A DNA stretch of 64,000 nt from Clostridium sp. CAG:628 (GTDB lineage: Bacteria; Bacillota_I; Bacilli_A; RF39; UBA660). Each line of letters begins with the position of its first letter. The stretch's first letter is position 1. Position numbers and translations under genes: made by a program. This document shows, piece after piece, positions 4,850 through 63,344 of this stretch. The notes below the pieces were generated by a model. It was not told the origin of the DNA and did not search any database. It saw only the letters and a program-made list of their open reading frames with translations. The DNA lies in the NCBI GenBank assembly GCA_000438415.1, contig FR902240.1, positions 52,307 to 116,306 on the forward strand, in the 5' to 3' direction.

Positions 4850-5095
4850 CTTGACAAACAACTTAAAAGTAACTATAATTTAAGTATATTATTTATTTAG
4901 AGGAGTAATGTATTTACTATTTATAGAGAGTTAACGATAGGTGTAAGTTAATATTAAGTGGTACATGAAGACACTAAACTAGAAAGTAATCGTAATTTCT
5001 GCGTTAAAGAATTAAAGAGTATAGTATGACTATAAATTAAGGTGGTACCGCTGCTAACAAGCAGTCCTTAAGTTTATAGTCTTTTTATTTTAAGG
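4850..5095 (+). promoter_or_regulatory. T-box leader of aspS, putative Asp GAC specifier, with the conserved T-box sequence and a terminator hairpin
   Basis: AAGGTGGTACCGCTG (T-box consensus AGGGTGGNACCGCG) lies at about 5038..5055. It is embedded in the hairpin GACTATAAATTAAGG...CCTTAAGTTTATAGTC followed by TTTTTATTTT. GAC sits in the loop at 5026..5028. Confidence 0.65.
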
Positions 5096-5108: not shown

Positions 5109-6848
5109 ATGGAAAACATTTACAGAAATGTATATTCAGGTGAAGTTGACGAAACTTACGCTGGAAAAGAAGTCAGAGTCGCTGGTTGGATTAATAGCAT
5201 TAGAAAACTAGGTGGTTTAACATTTGTTACTTTAAGAGACGAAAAAGGTATCGTACAAATCATAACAGAAGACGCTGATATGTTTAAAGGAATAACTAGG
5301 GAAAGCACAGTTACTATTACAGGTACAGTAAGGTTAAGAACTGAAGATATGATTAACCCTAACATGAAAACAGGAAAAATAGAAATTCTTGCAAGCAGTG
5401 TAGAAGTACTAGGAGAATGTGCGAGCATTTTACCTTTTGAAATAAATAGAAGTAGAGAAGAAGCAAGCGAAGAAACTAGATTAAAATATAGATATCTAGA
5501 TTTAAGAAACCCAAAAGTACATGATAACATGGTATTTAGGTTTAAAGTAATAGACTATATTAGAAGTCTTATGAAAAGTATGGACTTCACAGAAATATCT
5601 ACACCAATAATTACAACATCAAGTCCAGAAGGTGCAAGAGATTTTATAATTCCAAGTAGAAAATATAAAGGAAAATTCTATGCGCTTCCTCAAGCACCAC
5701 AAATATATAAACAATTACTGATGGTAAGTGGATTTAACAAATACTTCCAAATTGCACCTTGCTTTAGAGACGAAGACTGTCGTGCAGATAGAACTTTAGA
5801 GTTTTACCAACTAGACTTTGAAATGAGTTTTGTTACAGAAGAAGATGTATACAAAGTTGGAGAAAAAATATTCTATGATGTATTTAGTAACTTTACAGAT
5901 AAGTATGTAAGTCCTGCACCATTTAGAAGAATTCCTTATAGTGAAGCAATGCTTAAATATGGAAGTGATAAACCAGACTTAAGAAATCCATTAATTATAA
6001 GTGAGTTAACAAATATCTTTAAAAATACTACTTTCACTCCATTTATTGGCAGCACTGTAAGAGGTATTAAAGTTTCAAATATAGAAAAATCTAATAGCTG
6101 GTACAAGAAAATGGAAGAGTATGCTAAAGAAATCGGAATGAGTGGGCTTGCTTACTTAAAAGTAACAGAAGAAAATGCTTTAAAAGGAAGTTTAGACAAA
6201 TACTTAACTGATCAAGAAAGAAGTGAGTTATTTACTAGTCTTGAACTTAAAACTAACGATACATTATTTATTATAAGCGATAAAAAGAAATGTGAAAAAT
6301 ATGCTGGACTTTTAAGAACTAAACTAGGCGAAGAACTAGATCTAATTGATAAAGATAGATATGAATTTTGCATAGTAAACGATTTTCCATTCTATGAATG
6401 GAACGAAGAAGATAACAAGTGGGATTTTGGACACAATCCATTTAGTATGCCACAAGGTGGGTTAGATGCACTTAACAACGAACCTATTGAAAGTATTCTA
6501 GCATATCAATATGACTTTGTATGTAATGGTTGTGAAATGGCTAGTGGTGCAGTAAGAAACCATAGTATTGAAATAATGAAAAAAGCCTTTGAACTTGCTG
6601 GTTATGACGAAGAAGTAGTTAAAACTAAATTCAAGAGCTTGTATACAGCTTTTCAGTATGGTGCTCCACCACATGCTGGTATGGCTCCTGGAATAGATAG
6701 AATAATAATGCTTTTAACTGGAGAAGAAAATCTAAGAGAAGTTCAAATATTCCCACCAAACGTAAGTGGCCAAGACTTACTTATGGGTGGACCTACAGAA
6801 GTAACAGAAACTCAGCTAAGAGAAACTCACTTAAAAATTAGAGATTAA
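5109..6848 (+). CDS. aspS: Aspartyl-tRNA synthetase
   Basis: Class II aaRS motifs are present (QLDFEMSF, GGLDALN, GMAPGIDRIIMLL). It has an N-terminal OB fold and is 579 aa. Confidence 0.95.
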   Translation: MENIYRNVYSGEVDETYAGKEVRVAGWINSIRKLGGLTFVTLRDEKGIVQIITEDADMFKGITRESTVTITGTVRLRTEDMINPNMKTGKIEILASSVEVLGECASILPFEINRSREEASEETRLKYRYLDLRNPKVHDNMVFRFKVIDYIRSLMKSMDFTEISTPIITTSSPEGARDFIIPSRKYKGKFYALPQAPQIYKQLLMVSGFNKYFQIAPCFRDEDCRADRTLEFYQLDFEMSFVTEEDVYKVGEKIFYDVFSNFTDKYVSPAPFRRIPYSEAMLKYGSDKPDLRNPLIISELTNIFKNTTFTPFIGSTVRGIKVSNIEKSNSWYKKMEEYAKEIGMSGLAYLKVTEENALKGSLDKYLTDQERSELFTSLELKTNDTLFIISDKKKCEKYAGLLRTKLGEELDLIDKDRYEFCIVNDFPFYEWNEEDNKWDFGHNPFSMPQGGLDALNNEPIESILAYQYDFVCNGCEMASGAVRNHSIEIMKKAFELAGYDEEVVKTKFKSLYTAFQYGAPPHAGMAPGIDRIIMLLTGEENLREVQIFPPNVSGQDLLMGGPTEVTETQLRETHLKIRD

Positions 6849-38312: not shown

Positions 38313-38471
38313 TACTTGAAAAGAGTACTATTTTTTTGTATAATTAATTTAGTTAAGGTAGAAGGAGGATATGTTATATGACTAATAAAATTAATAATAT
38401 AATAAATTATATGTCTTTACCTTTAGTGCAAAGTAAAGTACTAAAGGGGGGGGTATTATCTTCTAACTAAC
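38311..38471 (+). repeat. Degenerate copy 1 of a ~160-bp repeat (terminator-like hairpin, extended -10, strong SD, start of a small ORF), about 80% identical to 53598..53761
   Basis: Shared blocks are AGTACTTGAA..AGAGTACT, AGTTAAGGTAGAAGGAGGATATGT.ATATGACTAATAA ... and the identical 20-mer GTATTATCTTCTAACTAACT. The copy-1 small ORF is broken by a TAA after 8 codons. Confidence 0.6.
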
Positions 38472-39313
<842 letters not shown>

Positions 39314-39379: not shown

Positions 39380-39487
39380 TTTGTAGGTGACGATAGCAAA
39401 GTGGACACACCTGTTCCCATCTCGAACACAGAAGTTAAGCACTTTAACGGCGAAGATAGTGTAAGCGAAAATAGCAAGTTGCCTACT
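39380..39487 (+). rRNA. rrf: 5S rRNA (rather short, with a reduced helix IV/V region)
   Basis: TTTGTAGGTGACGATAGCAAAGTGGACACACCTGTTCCCATCTCGAACACAGAAGTTAAGC... aligns with the Firmicute 5S 5' two-thirds. The terminal helix pairs GTAGG with CCTAC. Confidence 0.75.
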
Positions 39488-39556: not shown

Positions 39557-39633
39557 GGCGTTATTGGTGAAGTGGTTAACACGCCAGATTGTGGCTCTGG
39601 TATGCGTGGGTTCGATTCCCACATAGCGCCCCA
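39557..39633 (+). tRNA. tRNA-His (GTG anticodon) with encoded G-1 and CCA
   Basis: Cloverleaf: acceptor GCGTTAT/ATAGCGC plus an extra 5' G pairing with discriminator C73; anticodon stem CCAGA/TCTGG; loop TTGTGGC; T-arm GTGGG-TTCGATT-CCCAC; CCA encoded. Confidence 0.9.
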
Positions 39634-50421: not shown

Positions 50422-52236
50422 ATGAAAATAAGAAACGTTGCAATAATTGCCCACGTTGACCATGGTAAAACTACATTAGTAGACGAATTACTAAATCAAA
50501 GTGGAACTTTTAGAGAAAATGAAACACATGACAAAAGAGTAATGGACTCAAATGATATAGAAAAAGAAAGAGGAATAACAATTTTAGCCAAAACAACTGG
50601 TGTACATTATAAAGATTATAAAATTAATATTGTTGATACTCCAGGACATGCTGACTTTGGTGGAGAAGTAGAAAGAATAATGCATATGGTTGATGGTGTA
50701 ATCCTTTTAGTTGATGCTAGAGAAGGTACTATGCCTCAAACAAGATTTGTTCTTAAAAAAGCATTAGAGGCTAATTTAAAACCAATAGTAGTTATTAACA
50801 AAGTTGATAGAGAAAATGTAAGAATTAGTGAAGTAATAGATGAAGTACTTGAATTATTTATTGACTTAGGTGCAAGTGATGAACAAATAGATTTCCCTAT
50901 AATTTATGCAAGTGCTTTAAACGGAACTAGTAGTTATGACGAAGACTTATCAACACAAAAACACACAATGGACCCAATATTTGAAACAATTATTAACACT
51001 ATACCTGAGCCAAAGGGAGACGTGAATGCCCCATTACAATTCCAACCAGCACTTTTAGACTATAACGATTATGTTGGAAGAATTGGTGTAGGTACTATTG
51101 CTAATGGTACAGTTAAAACTGGACAAATGGTTTCATGTGTAAGATTAGATGGTAGCATTAAACAATTTAGAATACAAAAATTATTTGGTTTTACTGGAAT
51201 AAAAAGGGAAGAAATAGAAAGTGCTTCAGCTGGAGAAATAGTTGGTATATCTGGACTTCCTGACATATCTGTAGGAGAAACAGTTTGTGAAATAGGAAAA
51301 GAAGAAGCTCTTCCTGTCCTTAGAATAGAAGAGCCTACTTTAAAAATGACATTTGGAGTTAACACAAGTCCTTTCTCTGGTAAAGAAGGTAAACTACTTA
51401 CTGCTAGAAAAATTGAAGAAAGATTAATGAAAGAACTAGAAAAAGATGTATCTTTAAGAGTAGAACAAAAAGATGCTGAAAACTGGATAGTAAGTGGACG
51501 TGGAGAACTTCACTTATCAATATTAATTGAAAACATGAGAAGAGAAGGTTTTGAACTTCAAGTATCAAAGCCAGAAGTAATTGTAAAAGAAATAGATGGA
51601 GTTAAATGTGAACCATATGAAGAAGTTTTAATAGAAGCACCTACTGACACAGTTGGTTCAGTAATAGAAAGTTTAGCAAGTCGTGATGGTCAAATGATTA
51701 ATATGAAACCTTTTGAAACAAATACTAAACTTGAATATTTAGTACCATCTAGAGGTTTAATTGGTTTTGTTAACGAATTTTTAATTCTAACTAAAGGTTA
51801 TGGAATAATTAACCATACATTTAAAGAATATGGACCAGTTAATCCTAACCCAGTTGGAGAAAGAAAACTAGGTGTATTAGTTTCTATGGAAAATGGAAAA
51901 GCTACTGCATATGGGTTAGGTGCTTTAGAAGACCGTGGTGTCATGTTTATCGAACCAGGTACTGAAGTATATGAAGGTATGATCGTTGGAGAAAACAATA
52001 GAGATAACGATTTAGCAGTAAACGTAACAAAAGCTAAAAACTTAACTAATACAAGAAGTGCTAGTAAAGACCATACTGTTGTACTTAAAAGACCTAGACA
52101 ATTAACTCTAGAAATAGCATTAGACTACATTAATACTGACGAACTTGTAGAAGTTACTCCAAAAAGTTTTAGATTAAGAAAGAAAATATTAAATACTGAA
52201 CTTAGAAAAAAAGAAGATGCTAAAAAACAAAAGTAG
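50422..52236 (+). CDS. typA: Translational GTPase TypA/BipA
   Basis: [19 protein letters not shown]...[12 protein letters not shown]...NKVD. Confidence 0.9.
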
Positions 52237-52242
52237 GTAATT

Positions 52243-52845
52243 ATGAAAACTAATTATGATAAAATATTAGAAGAAACAATTAACGAGTTAAAAGGGCGTA
52301 AGCCCTCTTTGCTTTTACACTCTTGCTGTGCACCATGTTCTACTGCCGTAATAACAAGATTAAAAGATTATTTTGATGTAACAATATTTTACTATAACCC
52401 AAATATTGAACCATTAGAAGAATACTTAAAAAGAAAAGAAGAACAAAAAAGAATAGTTAGTAAGTTTGGTATTAAGTTTTTAGATTGTGACTATGAAAAT
52501 GAAATATTTAAAAGTATATCAAAAGGACTAGAAGACTTACCTGAAGGTGGTTATAGATGTCATAAATGTTATGAATTAAGACTAACTAAAACAGCACTTA
52601 CTGCAAAAGAAAATAACTTTGAATATTTTGGTACTACTTTAACAGTAAGCCCATATAAAAATAGTCAAGTGTTAAATGCTATTGGAAAAGATATAGAAGA
52701 AATAACAAAAGTAAAATTCTTATATTCAGACTTTAAGAAAAAAGAAGGATATAAATTATCCATTCAATTATCTAAAAAATATAACTTATATAGACAAAAC
52801 TATTGTGGGTGTATATATAGTAAAAAACAAAGTAAGCAAAACTAA
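52243..52845 (+). CDS. queH: Epoxyqueuosine reductase QueH (DUF208)
   Basis: LLLHSCCAPCS...YYNPNIEP...GGYRCHKCYELRL. Confidence 0.75.
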   Translation: MKTNYDKILEETINELKGRKPSLLLHSCCAPCSTAVITRLKDYFDVTIFYYNPNIEPLEEYLKRKEEQKRIVSKFGIKFLDCDYENEIFKSISKGLEDLPEGGYRCHKCYELRLTKTALTAKENNFEYFGTTLTVSPYKNSQVLNAIGKDIEEITKVKFLYSDFKKKEGYKLSIQLSKKYNLYRQNYCGCIYSKKQSKQN

Positions 52846-52946
52846 ACTTACTTTGTTTTATTTTATGTAACATAATGTAAATATTAACAAAAACTACCTT
52901 GTATAAATTCCAAAAATTTACTATAATAATTATAGTAGGTGACAAT

Positions 52947-53591
52947 ATGAAGAATAAAAAGGAAAAAAGTACATTATATTTTATAACTAAGACAATATCT
53001 TGGTGTGTAATGGCAATATTGGTAATAATTGGTTTATTTTTAGTAAGTTATATTGCTATAAATAAAATAGCACTTGCTAAAGGCCAAAAACAACCTCTTG
53101 GTTTATATACAATAATAAGTCCTAGTATGACTCCAAATATACAAGTATATGATGTAGTATTTATAGTTAAAACAAATCCAGAAGATATAGAAGTTGGAGA
53201 TGTAATCTCATACTATAGTACTAATGCATTCTTTGGTAATACTCCAATAACACACCGTGTAGTAGAAAAATTTAGTACTAATCAAGGTTACACCTTTAGA
53301 ACAAAAGGAGATGCTAACCCAGTTGTAGATAACGAAATAATAAGTGAAGATAATGTTATAGGTGTTGAAAAAATGATAATACCACAACTAGGAAGAGTAC
53401 AATTCTTTTTAGCAAGCAAATTCGGTTGGTTCACAATAATACTAATACCAGCTGTAGGTGTAATTATATATGATATAATAAAATTAATTAAATTAATAAG
53501 AGTAAAAAATAAAATGTCTAAAGTAAAACAAGAAGAAGTAGATGAAGACTTACCAACACGAAAAAGAAAAAGAACAACATCAGTAAAATAA
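52947..53591 (+). CDS. sipW: Signal peptidase I, SipW type (archaeal/ER-like)
   Basis: ISPSMTPN (SxSMxP), ITHRVVEK and KGDANP, plus a C-terminal TM anchor. This matches the B. subtilis SipW pattern. Confidence 0.75.
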   Translation: MKNKKEKSTLYFITKTISWCVMAILVIIGLFLVSYIAINKIALAKGQKQPLGLYTIISPSMTPNIQVYDVVFIVKTNPEDIEVGDVISYYSTNAFFGNTPITHRVVEKFSTNQGYTFRTKGDANPVVDNEIISEDNVIGVEKMIIPQLGRVQFFLASKFGWFTIILIPAVGVIIYDIIKLIKLIRVKNKMSKVKQEEVDEDLPTRKRKRTTSVK

Positions 53592-53597
53592 TTAATT

Positions 53598-53761
53598 AAG
53601 AGTACTTGAATAAAGTATTCTTTTTTGATAAAATTAAACTAGTTAAGGTAGAAGGAGGATATGTAATATGACTAATAATTATGTAAATAAATTAAGTTAT
53701 ATATCTTCACTTATAGTACAAAATAAAGTACCAAATATGGAGTATTATCTTCTAACTAACT
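53598..53761 (+). repeat. Copy 2 (intact) of the ~160-bp repeat: hairpin after sipW, extended -10, strong SD AAGGTAGAAGGAGGAT, small ORF
   Basis: See copy 1 at 38311..38471. Confidence 0.6.
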
Positions 53762-53829
53762 TAAAAGAAGAAAATTTTTTGCATGAAATAAAATGGATAG
53801 GTGAAGTCTACCCATTTTTTGTTGTGTAA
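53668..53829 (+). CDS. Small ORF (53 aa) between sipW and the tasA-like gene; function unknown
   Basis: MTNNYVNKLSYISSLIVQNKVPNMEYYLLTNLKEENFLHEIKWIGEVYPFFVV. A very strong SD lies 7 nt upstream. Its 5' half is conserved in the degenerate copy at 38378. Confidence 0.4.
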   Translation: MTNNYVNKLSYISSLIVQNKVPNMEYYLLTNLKEENFLHEIKWIGEVYPFFVV

Positions 53830-53847
53830 TAAAAGGAGTTCATGTTT

Positions 53848-55381
53848 ATGCAGAAAAAACAAACAATATTAGTAGTTGCTAGTTTACTAGTAGTAGTACT
53901 AAGTGTAACACTAGCATACTTTACAGCTCAAATAATAGGAGAAGGAAAGAATATTTCATTTTACAGCACAAATAATTGGAGAAGGGAAGAATATTTCAGT
54001 AAGTAGTGCTGACTTGAAAATAGTATTTACTGATACAGATGGTAATATTGAAGGAAGTAATATAACACCAGGATGGAGTAATAGTAAAACTTTTACAGTT
54101 AAAAACGAGTCAAATGGTACATATAAGTATGATATTATAATAAAAGATTTAGTAAATACTTTTAAAACTTATAAATACTTACAATATAAAATAACTAGTA
54201 CTGATGTTAGTTTATCTAATACAGAAGCTATAGACGAAGACACATGTAAAACTAAATCACTATGTAATTTAGGTTTCCCTACGTATAAGGTTATCTTTGG
54301 CTTAACTCAAGCACAATGTCAAGAACTTGTAAAAAAGCACTCTTTTTCTCATGCTTATGAAGAGTCAGATTATAGTGAAGATTTAACTAATAGAACTTGG
54401 GTAACTGAACTAATTAAACCGATAAATAACTGGGTAAAGTTCGGAAAATATCAGAATGATTTGATTGGATATAGAGGATATAAATCAACCACAGATACTT
54501 CATATCACGAATATTCTACTATGGATGAATGTACATCAGCAAGTAGTTATAATACAAATTGTACTGAATATAAATATGCAAATACTGGTGATGATATATA
54601 CTGGAGAATAATAAGAACAAACTCAGATGGTAGTGTAAGACTTCTTTACCACGGTACAAGTACAACAACAACAGAAGCATATATAGGAGCATCAGCATTT
54701 AATACAACATATAATAACCCAATGTATGTAGGATATATGTATGGAACAAGTGGTTCATTAGTTAACAATAGAACAAATACAAATAATAGTACAATAAAAG
54801 GAATAATAGATACATGGTATGAAAATAATCTAAAAATAAACTATACAAAATACCTAAGTACAACAGCAGTATACTGTAATGATAGAAGTAACCCAGCAGG
54901 TGGATATAACACTGATAAAAAGACAGAATTCTACTATGGTGGATATACAAGACTAGGAACAAATAAAACACCAACCTATGACTGTACAAATGTAAATGAT
55001 AAATTCACAGTAGACACAAGTACAGGAAATGGAAAGTTAACATATCCCATAGCATTAATGACAGCAGACGAAGTAAGTTTTGCAGGTGGAGTATATTTTA
55101 CAAGCGCAGAAACATGGTATTATAAAAATAGTGCAAAGGGTAGCTCAACAGGCTCAACCTTGTGGTGGTTGTTGTCTCCTTCCAATTGGAATAACGGCAG
55201 CGCTAACGTGTTCCTCATGCACGGTTCGTCCGGCCATGGCAACTTGTCCAGCGTCTACGTCTTCATCAACGCGCATGGTGTGCGTCCCGCCATTTCTCTC
55301 AAATCTTGTGTCAAGACAAGTGGAGGAGATGGCTCGGCAAGTGACCCATACACAATAAAAGAAACTACAAGTGGGTGCTAA
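53848..55381 (+). pseudogene. TasA/camelysin-like secreted protein with a SipW-cognate signal peptide and a C-terminal DUF6273-like module. The frame is interrupted by a 40-bp tandem duplication; the downstream part is the 54014..55381 ORF.
   Basis: ATG 53848 has an AAAGGAG RBS and encodes MQKKQTILVVASLLVVVLSVTLAYFTAQIIGEGKNIS. The ..TLAYFT.. matches the SipW-cognate signal class of TasA/CalY. Removing one 40-bp unit joins this in frame to ...VSSADLKIVFTDTDGN. The C-terminal WWLLSP...GVRPAISL resembles DUF6273. Confidence 0.55.
53921..54000 (+). repeat. Direct tandem duplication, 2 x 40 bp (4 mismatches), inside the signal-peptide region of the tasA-like gene
   Basis: TTACAGCTCAAATAATAGGAGAAGGAAAGAATATTTCATT / TTACAGCACAAATAATTGGAGAAGGGAAGAATATTTCAGT. 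40 is not a multiple of 3, giving a +1 frameshift and a stop at 54004. Confidence 0.8.
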
Positions 55382-55453: not shown

Positions 55454-55497
55454 GTAGGAAATCGGTAAATTTAAATGTCGGTTTTCCTACATTTTTT
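55454..55497 (+). terminator. Rho-independent terminator after the tasA-like gene
   Basis: GTAGGAAA...TTTTCCTAC followed by ATTTTTTT. Confidence 0.6.
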
Positions 55498-62991: not shown

Positions 62992-63344
62992 GGGGCTGTA
63001 TTGATTCGACAGAGTAGTTGTACGTATGGATACAAGTAGTAGGCGTACTTAAAACGCAAAATAAAATAATCGGAAACGATTTTAATTTTGCTCCTAGTTT
63101 TGCCTAATTAATGGTACTGGAGGTTCAGTTTATTCTTTGTCCATGAGAATAAGTGCTGGACTCATAAAAATGGACTATACTATATAATTGTTTAGGTTAT
63201 ATAATGAAATTATTCTAAACTTATGCTAGTACTGGAATGTTGGCTCTCCATGGTACTAGATGAAAATTTAAACCAACTAAACTTGTAAAAACGTCTGTAT
63301 GGTTGATGCTTTGGACACGAAGTCGCACTTCGTCAGCTCCACCA
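62992..63344 (+). ncRNA. ssrA: tmRNA (SsrA), with a predicted tag peptide (A)GNDFNFAPSFA
   Basis: The 5' end GGGGCTGTATTGATTCGACAGAGTAG matches GGGGGCGTTACGGATTCGACAGGGATAG of B. subtilis. The acceptor stem has a G3:U70 pair and ends ...CAGCTCC-A-CCA. The tag frame GGA AAC GAT TTT AAT TTT GCT CCT AGT TTT GCC TAA follows AACGCAAAATAAAATAATC. TTGATA-17-TATAAT promoter at 62951..62977. A terminator follows. Confidence 0.8.

Follow-up and report, generated by a model that had tools for sequence, protein, structure and literature searches.

A sipW gene next to a damaged, probably chimeric member of an expanded family of secreted proteins with apparently phase-variable leaders in Clostridium sp. 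CAG:628

The DNA analyzed here, which we call the window, is a stretch of 64,000 nt from contig FR902240.1 of Clostridium sp. CAG:628, with a GC content of 25%. The family concerned, UBA660, we take to belong to the order RF39 of the Bacilli. The genus CAG-628 is a member of UBA660 (preprint 10.1101/2024.11.15.623857), which replaces the Erysipelotrichia-like genome proposed in an earlier note on this DNA. The locus of interest (Table 1) begins with sipW, which encodes a signal peptidase, and ends with the damaged gene of a secreted protein, and between the two lie a hairpin, a promoter, a short open reading frame (ORF) and a second hairpin. These elements are parts of a cassette of about 230 nt that recurs upstream of paralogues of the secreted protein and consists of the terminator of the preceding gene, a sigma-70-like promoter, a ribosome-binding site (RBS), a short ORF, a run of Gs, an A-run with hairpin and U-run, and finally the RBS and start of the main gene. 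In the window the hairpin behind sipW forms the first part of the cassette and overlaps the -35 element of the next promoter. The explanation that we favor, with modest confidence, is that the locus consists of sipW and a single copy from a family of secreted proteins that has undergone massive expansion and has phase-variable leaders, and that the copy in the window is probably chimeric.

Table 1. Positions of the features discussed, numbered from the first nucleotide of the window. A slash within a peptide marks a predicted cleavage site or a deletion junction.
Feature	Position	Strand	Basis
sipW, endoplasmic reticulum (ER)/archaeal-type signal peptidase I, 214 aa	52947..53591	+	TIGR02228 102.1 bits, motifs, hydropathy
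Terminator-like hairpin and T-run after sipW	53600..53626	+	-13.7 kcal/mol, z -4.8
Sigma-70-like promoter, TTGAAT-17 nt-TAAAAT, TG before the second hexamer	53606..53634	+	Consensus scan; conserved before paralogues
Leader ORF (the small ORF of the earlier note), 53 codons; RBS GAAGGAGGA at 53651-53659	53668..53829	+	Homologous leader ORFs before many paralogues
Degenerate G-tract position, reads CCAAATATGGAGTATTATC	53731..53749	+	Alignment with L089-L092, L001 and L094
A-run, hairpin and T-run, an intrinsic-terminator-like attenuator	53790..53820	+	-13.6 kcal/mol, z -3.1; covariation
5' fragment of family gene; RBS AAAGGAG at 53832-53838	53848..54006	+	Start MQKK... matches P0001/P0002
Predicted SipW site TLA/YF	53908-53922	+	Signal peptide of family gene
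40-bp imperfect tandem duplication, 36/40 identical	53920..53999	+	Tandem Repeats Finder (53920-53998) and comparison of copies
Family gene body in the frame of copy 2, approximately the mature protein, 473 aa	53960..55381	+	Truncated sandwich, Cys-rich insert, DUF6273-like module
Annotated 455-aa ORF, identical to CDE99407.1	54014..55381	+	Public annotation 'unknown'
Junction of in-frame 147-aa deletion (KITSTD/VSL) relative to intact 644-aa P0002/P0243	54197..54208	+	Alignment
Terminator-like hairpin and T-run 3' of family gene, upstream of rpsB	55457..55496	+	Terminator scan
Second family cassette: terminator, promoter, leader, G8 tract; broken off into 23S rRNA	38313..38473	+	DNA similarity
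Leader ORF of second cassette, 30 codons	38378-38470	+	G8 tract at 38446-38453

The product of sipW carries the motifs SPSMTP (residues 58-63), THRVV (102-106) and KGDAN (120-124), has hydrophobic membrane segments in its N- and C-terminal parts, and matches TIGR02228 above the cut-off of 51.85 bits (E 2.6e-29, residues 19-178). These features bear out the SipW-type peptidase that had been reported next to a secreted-protein gene. From what is known of B. subtilis SipW, Ser60, His103 and Asp122 are presumably the catalytic residues, a Ser/His/Asp set instead of the bacterial Ser/Lys dyad. With the equivalog model of Bacillus SipW (NF046067) the protein scores 76.4 bits, below the 190 required, and judged by its sequence it is a SipW-type enzyme and not an orthologue-grade match to Bacillus SipW.

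The family gene starts at 53842 or 53848 and the encoded protein opens with MQKKQTILVVASLLVVVLSVTLAYFTAQ. Its signal peptide ends in T-L-A-Y-F-T-A, which, compared by eye with G-G-T-x-A-x-F-[ST]-D, keeps A at -1 and F at +2 and has A in place of D. The assignment of this signal peptide to the SipW-cognate class is thus upheld by the TLA/YF site with Phe at P2', but not by the A for D replacement or by TIGR04088, which the window protein does not match; a distant family member reached 17.8 with that model, against 19. The Phe at P2' of TasA makes TasA a poor substrate for LepB, and by analogy SipW would cleave the preproteins of this family at TLA/YF (PMC10269814).

How large is the family to which this protein belongs? 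Among 8,000 candidates scored, 7,967 proteins matched at E ≤ 1e-3, and a scan of one genome per GTDB species yielded 419 stretches encoding relatives, concentrated in about 15 metagenome-assembled genomes (MAGs) of uncultured gut 'Bacilli/Tenericutes/Bacillota'. Among the 80 loci kept of these 419, many of them at contig ends, at least 19 came from CAKOIS01 and at least 18 from DOEC01 (UBA11492). The members share an architecture of a SipW-class signal peptide (…TLA/YFTAQIIGxGK), an eight-strand TasA/BsaA-like beta-sandwich and one or two divergent DUF6273 modules.

The N-terminal domain (N-domain) is a beta-sandwich in the AlphaFold model of the relative P0002 (residues ~41-172, pLDDT 85-93), and a model of the N-domain alone of P0135 gave an eight-strand sandwich with a mean pLDDT of 84 and disorder in the stretch that follows the signal peptide. 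With an N-domain profile 2,681 cluster representatives were found, many of which are standalone proteins of ~170 aa with G-x-T-Y-A-Y-F signals. Three of 10 such proteins pass the Peptidase_M73 gathering score of 22.5 (P0359, 34.8 bits; P0390, 28.9 bits; P0366, 23.6 bits), and these three matched the N-domain profile at ~1e-24 to 1e-27. The best NCBIfam matches of several distant relatives were to TIGR04090 (BsaA; 23-34 bits against a cut-off of 60), with TasA and TIGR04088 also found, all of them sub-threshold. Alignment of the N-domain profile with TasA by hhalign spanned 74 columns (E 1.1e-4, probability 57%), which comprise the signal peptide and the first strands; the TasA query was approximate, and errors in it can only lower the score. 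Among the fold matches were generic beta-sandwiches and carbohydrate-binding modules (CBMs), together with the TasA fibre 8aur. In our view the N-domain probably belongs to the TasA/BsaA superfamily as a remote member. A scan of PHROGs returned one weak match of no assigned function (E 2e-4).

At the C-terminus, the paralogues P0006 (27.4 bits), P0044 (31.9 bits) and P0049 (28.5 bits) pass the gathering score of 23.5 of DUF6273 (PF19789), over profile positions ~87-172. Full-text searches turned up only seven papers in which DUF6273 is mentioned; it has been described as a C-type-lectin-like fold that serves as a receptor-binding domain diversified by diversity-generating retroelements (DGRs) (PMC10743442), and as the N-terminal domain of the Thomasclavelia ramosa IgA protease, a secreted protein of a gut bacterium (PMC12402451). 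Neither the window nor the loci examined showed a DGR, though no search aimed at DGRs was made. The C-termini of the window subfamily (window 55366-55381; P0001, P0002, P0006 and P0043) read ...SGGDGSASDPYTI.E.TSGC, with a terminal Cys, while those of a two-module subfamily read ...SGDGTASSPYEI.TD, without one; no sorting signal or membrane anchor was recognized in them.

Two variants of the architecture deserve description in their own right. P0209 (L101-L110) is a standalone protein of 176 aa, with signal peptide and N-domain only, whose gene lies 3' of an HD-domain gene, is preceded by an ordinary promoter and lacks a G tract; next come a terminator and a phase-variable (G10/G9), lectin-bearing paralogue of more than 500 aa. 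We speculate that P0209 may be a constitutive shaft subunit standing beside a variable head subunit. The two-module subfamily (~815 aa; P0116, 814 aa; L082-L088) belongs to another genus and is without the poly-G leader; upstream of P0116 lies a divergently transcribed gene for an 88-aa helix-turn-helix (HTH_3/HTH_31) regulator, which suggests a different mode of control.

What might such proteins build? TasA polymerizes by donor-strand exchange (PMC9674648), and BsaA proteins, which are remote TasA homologues processed by SipW and anchored to the membrane, do so through a disordered N-terminal loop (PMC7395162). The segment YFTAQIIGxGK after the predicted cleavage site is among the best-conserved parts of the family and is disordered in the monomer models, which is what a donor strand would look like. 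By analogy, this new N-terminus could act as the donor strand and the sandwiches could polymerize as in TasA and BsaA, and the lectin-like heads would then be variable adhesins binding host or dietary ligands. Tentatively, and as a possibility that we would not yet back, we therefore envisage SipW-dependent donor-strand fibres in which constitutive head-less subunits such as P0209, along with the sipW-linked copy, form the shaft, while some 20 lectin-headed subunits, each gated by its own poly-G leader, are added stochastically. If this is true, these bacteria possess a combinatorial, phase-variable adhesive pilus system, and with it a second, homopolymer-based and genome-wide attenuation switch of the kind described for the Streptococcus pil1 operon.

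It is also possible, though doubtful, that the family proteins are monomeric adhesins, secreted or tethered to the membrane, in which the sandwich is a stalk and either the N-terminus stays in place as a signal anchor or SipW acts as a general signal peptidase. The generic nature of many of the fold matches, the missing direct match to a TasA model, the fact that neither a cell-wall sorting signal nor an accessory TapA-like gene was identified, and a predicted sandwich that is complete without a donor strand would all fit monomers. Against monomers speak the high conservation of the post-cleavage segment, which is nonetheless disordered, the abundance of standalone N-domain proteins, with P0209 and its ordinary promoter adjoining a phase-variable, lectin-bearing paralogue, and the polymerization of BsaA-family proteins by donor-strand exchange.

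The window copy itself is damaged in two places. The copies of the tandem duplication (53920-53959 and 53960-53999) differ at three synonymous third codon positions and at the last base. Since 40 is not a multiple of three, the frame is shifted: the first ORF stops at 54006, the remainder lacks a signal peptide, and as given the sequence encodes a 54-aa fragment and the 455-aa ORF, while deletion of either copy restores an ORF of 499 aa. The duplication is absent from every related locus compared, and an exact search of the Joint Genome Institute (JGI) metagenomes for its junction gave no match, a result that is uninformative about rare strains. P0001, a protein of 497 aa that is 98% identical and has no duplication, was found in independent metagenomes. 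Programmed frameshifting across the duplication was considered and rejected, as the relatives all lack the extra 40 bp and keep an uninterrupted frame. The second lesion emerges from comparison with the intact P0002/P0243 (95% identical), whose 147 extra residues include the last three strands of the sandwich (120-134, 139-148 and 164-172 of the P0002 model) and the linker. This deletion is real, as it is common to the independent contigs L001 and L094, which come from different samples; the allele is present in four independent contigs overall. With both a frameshift and the loss of three sandwich strands, the coding sequence as given is, to judge from its sequence, non-functional.

Did this arrangement ever exist in a cell? 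From codon 83 to the stop, the window gene and that of L001 are 100% identical in DNA (1,245 nt), and all 13 codons that differ (nine nonsynonymous, four synonymous) are among the first 82. The gene proximal to rpsB has no sipW upstream in any of eight independent contigs; its left flank holds a tRNA synthetase gene in L095 and a DDE transposase gene in L096-L098 and L100, while L001 and L094 have unrelated sequence there and both contigs end at the same base. Such variable left flanks suggest that the cassettes are either hot spots of recombination and rearrangement or systematic break points of assembly. On the sipW side, L112 and L113, from the same species, share 98.4% identity with window 50833-53654 and have the same cassette promoter 3' of sipW; in L112 the position corresponding to 53654 has taken up an IS110 element, which is followed by a leader that lacks the G tract and by 76 uninterrupted codons of the family gene, with no 40-bp duplication.

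The contig also contains the second family cassette, which emerged by DNA similarity, whereas a tblastn search of the window gave no paralogous coding sequence beyond the family gene. This cassette breaks off after ...TCTTCTAACTAACT straight into 23S rRNA sequence (GGACGGAAAGACCCC...), with approximately the 3' third of the 23S gene followed by 5S (39383-39487) and a tRNA (39558-39630); the large-subunit rRNA model of Rfam aligned all its positions, 1-2925, to just 978 nt of the window. Leader and 23S were almost certainly brought together in the contig by a chimeric join that a repeat induced.

We consider it likely that the window locus is likewise a chimeric join, of a sipW-linked paralogue (the 5' part) and the rpsB-proximal 497-aa allele (the 3' part). 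Two duplication copies that specify the same peptide with synonymous differences are to be expected if two paralogous sequences overlapping by 40 nt were joined end to end, and the other chimeric junction in the same contig makes misassembly likely. The alternative, which we think unlikely, is that the locus is correct as assembled: a genuine recombination in a CAG:628 strain would have put the rpsB-proximal body behind the sipW-linked leader and left the 40-bp duplication, making the gene a decaying pseudogene. The strain-dependent flanks of the rpsB-proximal gene indicate that cassette rearrangements do occur, the deletion allele is real, the IS110 element disrupts the sipW-linked cassette in L112 and L113, and the clustering of strain differences in the first 82 codons suggests gene conversion. 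Homologous recombination alone, however, does not make a 40-bp tandem duplication with four mismatches, the duplication is found in no other assembly, and the same contig bears the implausible leader-to-23S junction; the CAG:628 assembly is also, as we understand it, an early co-abundance-group MAG, which we count against a genuine event.

Two further observations concern the 5' part of these genes. About eight residues after YFTAQIIG (53941-53970, codons 32-39) are hypervariable between strains, with EGKNISVSS, KGKNVTINS, KGKDVLVTS and KGKDVSVSS found among the window, L001, L094 and L112; another CAG:628 gene, P0146, for which a search gave no DNA record, has an identical N-terminus. The insertion in L112 (2823-4457) and L113 (965-1061) splits the sipW-linked cassette between promoter and leader RBS; the L112 insertion carries, on the opposite strand, a transposase gene of the IS110 family, and in L113 the junction is the same and the contig ends inside the insertion.

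The leader is where most members of the family appear to be switched on and off. Most paralogues have a tract of G7-G10 inside the leader ORF; runs of at least six Gs occur only twice in the window, one of them inside the second leader copy. Seventeen leaders with a tract were examined, and in every one the ORF reads into the hairpin in a single frame, of the three that tract length can set. In most paralogues this long frame stops 4 or 9 nt into the hairpin, ~45 nt before the main start codon, and in the type represented by the window and L001 it stops at +33, just before the main RBS and 12-18 nt from the main start codon; the two short frames stop 31-44 nt upstream of the hairpin. This geometry is kept while the leader peptides differ between subfamilies, and most assembled copies are in a short frame. 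The hairpins are AT-rich, with energies of -8 to -16 kcal/mol (z -2 to -5), and in the window the attenuator hairpin lies 12 nt upstream of the main-gene RBS. For 13 distinct leaders, the hairpin pairs 86.7% of cells, versus ~45% when it is slid, three pairs show compensatory changes, and the covariation score is 0.196 versus 0.070, with none of 500 shuffles as high. A search of three loci with Rfam, by E-value, found no known RNA family at the leaders.

The length of the tract varies between otherwise like copies, which is a result on relatives and not on the window copy. The gene of P0025, with identical protein and an identical 260-nt upstream region, has G8, G9, G9 and G10 in four metagenomes, and its leader ORFs as called comprise 46, 31, 31 and 30 codons, respectively. 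The P0243 locus has G7, G7, G8 and G8 in leaders that are otherwise identical, and the gene downstream of P0209 has G10 in five contigs; a sixth, L104, has G9 together with two nearby base substitutions. Within the species of the window, L001 has G7 and L094 has G10, with leaders differing at other positions too. At the tract position of the window, CCAAATATGGAGTATTATC, no slippery run is left, and the leader ORF continues in the long frame through hairpin and U-run to the TAA at 53827-53829. The same tract-less leader occurs in the independent contigs L111 (192/195 identical) and L112 (177/195), and for this reason we regard it as a real and stable allele.

In the pil1 operon of S. gallolyticus, GCAGA repeats set the length of a leader peptide, and long leaders destabilize a premature terminator by way of the translating ribosome (Danne et al. 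2014, PMC3894217). If the family works similarly, a ribosome in the long frame would melt the terminator and turn the gene ON, and the other two frames would be OFF. The window copy, having lost the tract with its leader fixed in the long frame, is predicted on the same analogy to show constitutive read-through. The small ORF that the earlier note placed between sipW and the secreted-protein gene is present; a reading of it as a gene product is not supported, and it is instead the leader ORF of an attenuator, running through the hairpin, and has no match in Pfam or NCBIfam. We also considered it as a TapA-like accessory gene and rejected this, its sequence not being conserved between subfamilies while the frame geometry is.

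Could the poly-G leader act by another route? Translational coupling or re-initiation onto the main gene, an effect on mRNA stability, or a functional leader peptide would be conceivable, and two observations lend them some support: 1. in leaders of the window/L001 type the end of the long frame overlaps the region of the main RBS and 2. the hairpins are AT-rich and weak, that of the window being unflagged by the consensus terminator scan. We nonetheless consider these routes quite improbable, because most long frames end inside the hairpin at a distance from the main start that is too great for coupling, the hairpin and U-run are kept with compensatory changes, the leader peptides diverge widely between subfamilies while the frame geometry is retained, and pil1, whose switch is proven by experiment, is laid out in the same way.

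What, then, speaks against the explanation that we favor, of sipW beside a probably chimeric member of an expanded, phase-variable family? At the level of the window protein, the reconstructed 499-aa sequence has no match to Peptidase_M73/TasA, TIGR04088, TIGR04090 or DUF6273 in Pfam or NCBIfam at E ≤ 1, and P0002 likewise matches neither Peptidase_M73 (PF12389) nor DUF6273 in Pfam at E ≤ 1. The earlier note had named the lack of a significant hit to TasA/camelysin among its refutations, and for the window protein itself that is formally the outcome; its picture of a TasA-like N-terminal region joined to a DUF6273-like module persists at the family level, only through relatives, where the respective models are matched. 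The links to M73 and by hhalign span only the signal peptide and ~50 mature residues, and sequence searches of the PDB with whole-family and N-domain profiles returned no TasA and nothing significant; on sequence grounds, membership of the N-domain in Pfam M73 cannot be demonstrated. The structure prediction that had been called for succeeded for the N-domain of relatives, but the C-terminal module was modeled poorly (pLDDT 40-60). As for the leaders, differences in tract length between assemblies could partly be homopolymer consensus errors, and the equation of the long frame with ON is by analogy. Two points run counter to a chimeric join: the flanks of the rpsB-proximal gene truly differ among strains, and the window leader is closer to that of L111, which lies downstream of an HD-like gene, than to that of the sipW-linked L112.

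The neighborhood of sipW bears on whether the locus is a unit. The order typA-queH-sipW is a conserved backbone (L019, L112-L121). In L019 and L119-121, the gene after sipW encodes a membrane protein of 151-170 aa, and the next one a protein of 560-643 aa that has the same C-terminal module (57-65% identity) with another N-domain and a …SY[AS]IFKVD signal, whereas in L114-118 lipid-metabolism genes lie 3' of sipW, and only one of the 80 kept loci (L019) has sipW within 6 kb of a family gene. With L112 and L113 included, adjacency of sipW and a family gene is recurrent and not universal, which is how the survey of sipW neighborhoods that had been proposed came out. The intervening 151-170-aa protein (L019 4536-4991; L119 5694-6206) has one N-terminal membrane segment, is conserved in two related lineages, has no Pfam or NCBIfam match and lacks a counterpart in the window; a role as anchor or as accessory, TapA-like component is conceivable. 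A cluster of SipW sequences 99% identical to that of the window has 113 members, the longest contig being 4.9 kb, and many close SipW homologues lie on contigs of 1-5 kb, which is consistent with repeats (family cassettes and IS elements) that flank sipW and break assemblies.

That sipW, the small ORF and the tasA-like gene make up one dedicated biofilm-matrix or spore-coat operon, like tapA-sipW-tasA or the sipW-bsaA operon of C. perfringens, is very improbable: sipW does lie immediately upstream, the adjacency does recur, and the gene does encode a SipW-class signal peptide and a remotely TasA/BsaA-like N-domain, but the terminator hairpin and independent promoter between the two genes mean that the locus is not an operon, the same promoter-leader cassette is autonomous before paralogues far from sipW, L114-118 have lipid-metabolism genes after sipW, the small ORF is that of a leader, frameshift and sandwich truncation both affect the window copy, and no sporulation context was seen. 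The operon and the dedicated locus of the earlier note are thus replaced by a single gene among paralogues that number at least 18-19 per genome and for the most part appear to be phase-variable.

The favored explanation, a phase-variable family with one member beside sipW, can be set against several known systems. As in the B. subtilis tapA-sipW-tasA and B. cereus sipW-tasA/calY loci, an ER/archaeal-type SipW adjoins a secreted protein whose signal ends in T-x-A/[AY]-F with an aromatic P2' residue (PMC10269814), the fold is a beta-sandwich with a weak alignment to the first ~75 residues of TasA, and the predicted mature N-terminus is conserved, as expected for donor-strand exchange (PMC9674648). 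Unlike the Bacillus systems, there is here no sipW operon, there are dozens of paralogues per genome with fused lectin-like C-terminal modules and a phase-variable leader, the window protein has no direct match to M73 or TIGR04088, and the host is a gut bacterium with a reduced genome and not a spore-forming Bacillus. To the sipW-bsaA-bsaB-bsaC genes of C. perfringens the link is the best NCBIfam match of distant N-domain relatives, TIGR04090, albeit sub-threshold, and BsaA has no lectin-like module, multigene expansion or poly-G leader. With pil1 the family shares a short leader ORF containing a simple-sequence repeat, then a stem-loop terminator immediately before a gene for a surface fibre; repeat length sets leader length, and only long leaders reach the terminator. 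It differs in that the repeat is a G homopolymer and not a pentanucleotide, the device stands before many paralogues and not one sortase-pilus operon, the window copy has lost the repeat, and the system is known from sequence, its effect on transcription being drawn by analogy. The variable surface families of Mollicutes, such as Vlp, Vsa and Vsp of Mycoplasma, are mostly lipoproteins controlled by poly-A tracts in promoter spacers or by site-specific inversion. The common ground is a small-genome, host-associated, low-GC bacterium with a large surface-protein family gated by hypermutable homopolymers; the difference lies in the proteins, which in the present family are secreted, SipW-type fusions of TasA-like and lectin-like parts, and in the tract, which is located within a translated leader. 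With the DUF6273 tentaclins and the T. ramosa IgA protease the paralogues share a C-terminal module that passes DUF6273, a ligand-binding, diversifiable surface domain (PMC10743442), although the window protein falls below detection by Pfam and the paralogues match only the C-terminal half of the profile. In contrast to DGR-diversified tentaclins, diversity here comes from many paralogues and recombination.

Every component, then, has a precedent: the fibres of SipW, TasA and BsaA, the variable domains of C-type-lectin-like fold, and the leader switch of pil1. We did not find the combination described, i.e., the fusion architecture, the ~20-copy expansion in a small genome and a homopolymer leader attenuator before many paralogues. 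In the full-text literature we found no paper linking RF39 or UBA660 with SipW, TasA or variable surface proteins, and the leader-peptide/terminator phase switch only for one Streptococcus pilus operon, in a search that was not exhaustive. Relatives of CAG-628 and UBA660 are common, uncultured, small-genome members of the human gut community. If the explanation is correct, the 18-19 or more paralogues per genome would be their main variable surface repertoire, comparable in role to the variable lipoproteins of mycoplasmas though built from other parts, and the leader-peptide/terminator phase switch would be a module reusable throughout a gene family. Since metagenomes show the G-tract states directly, the expression states of these adhesins could be tracked in vivo. 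The damage to the window copy lowers the interest of the original finding while the phenomenon at the family level raises it, and the locus is also a cautionary case, in which a damaged and probably chimeric copy is publicly annotated as a 455-aa 'unknown' protein.

Elsewhere in the window lie a T-box leader (4889-5072, 98.4 bits), upstream of an ORF at 5109-6848, and a tmRNA gene (62992-63344, 111 bits), both of them ordinary housekeeping RNAs.

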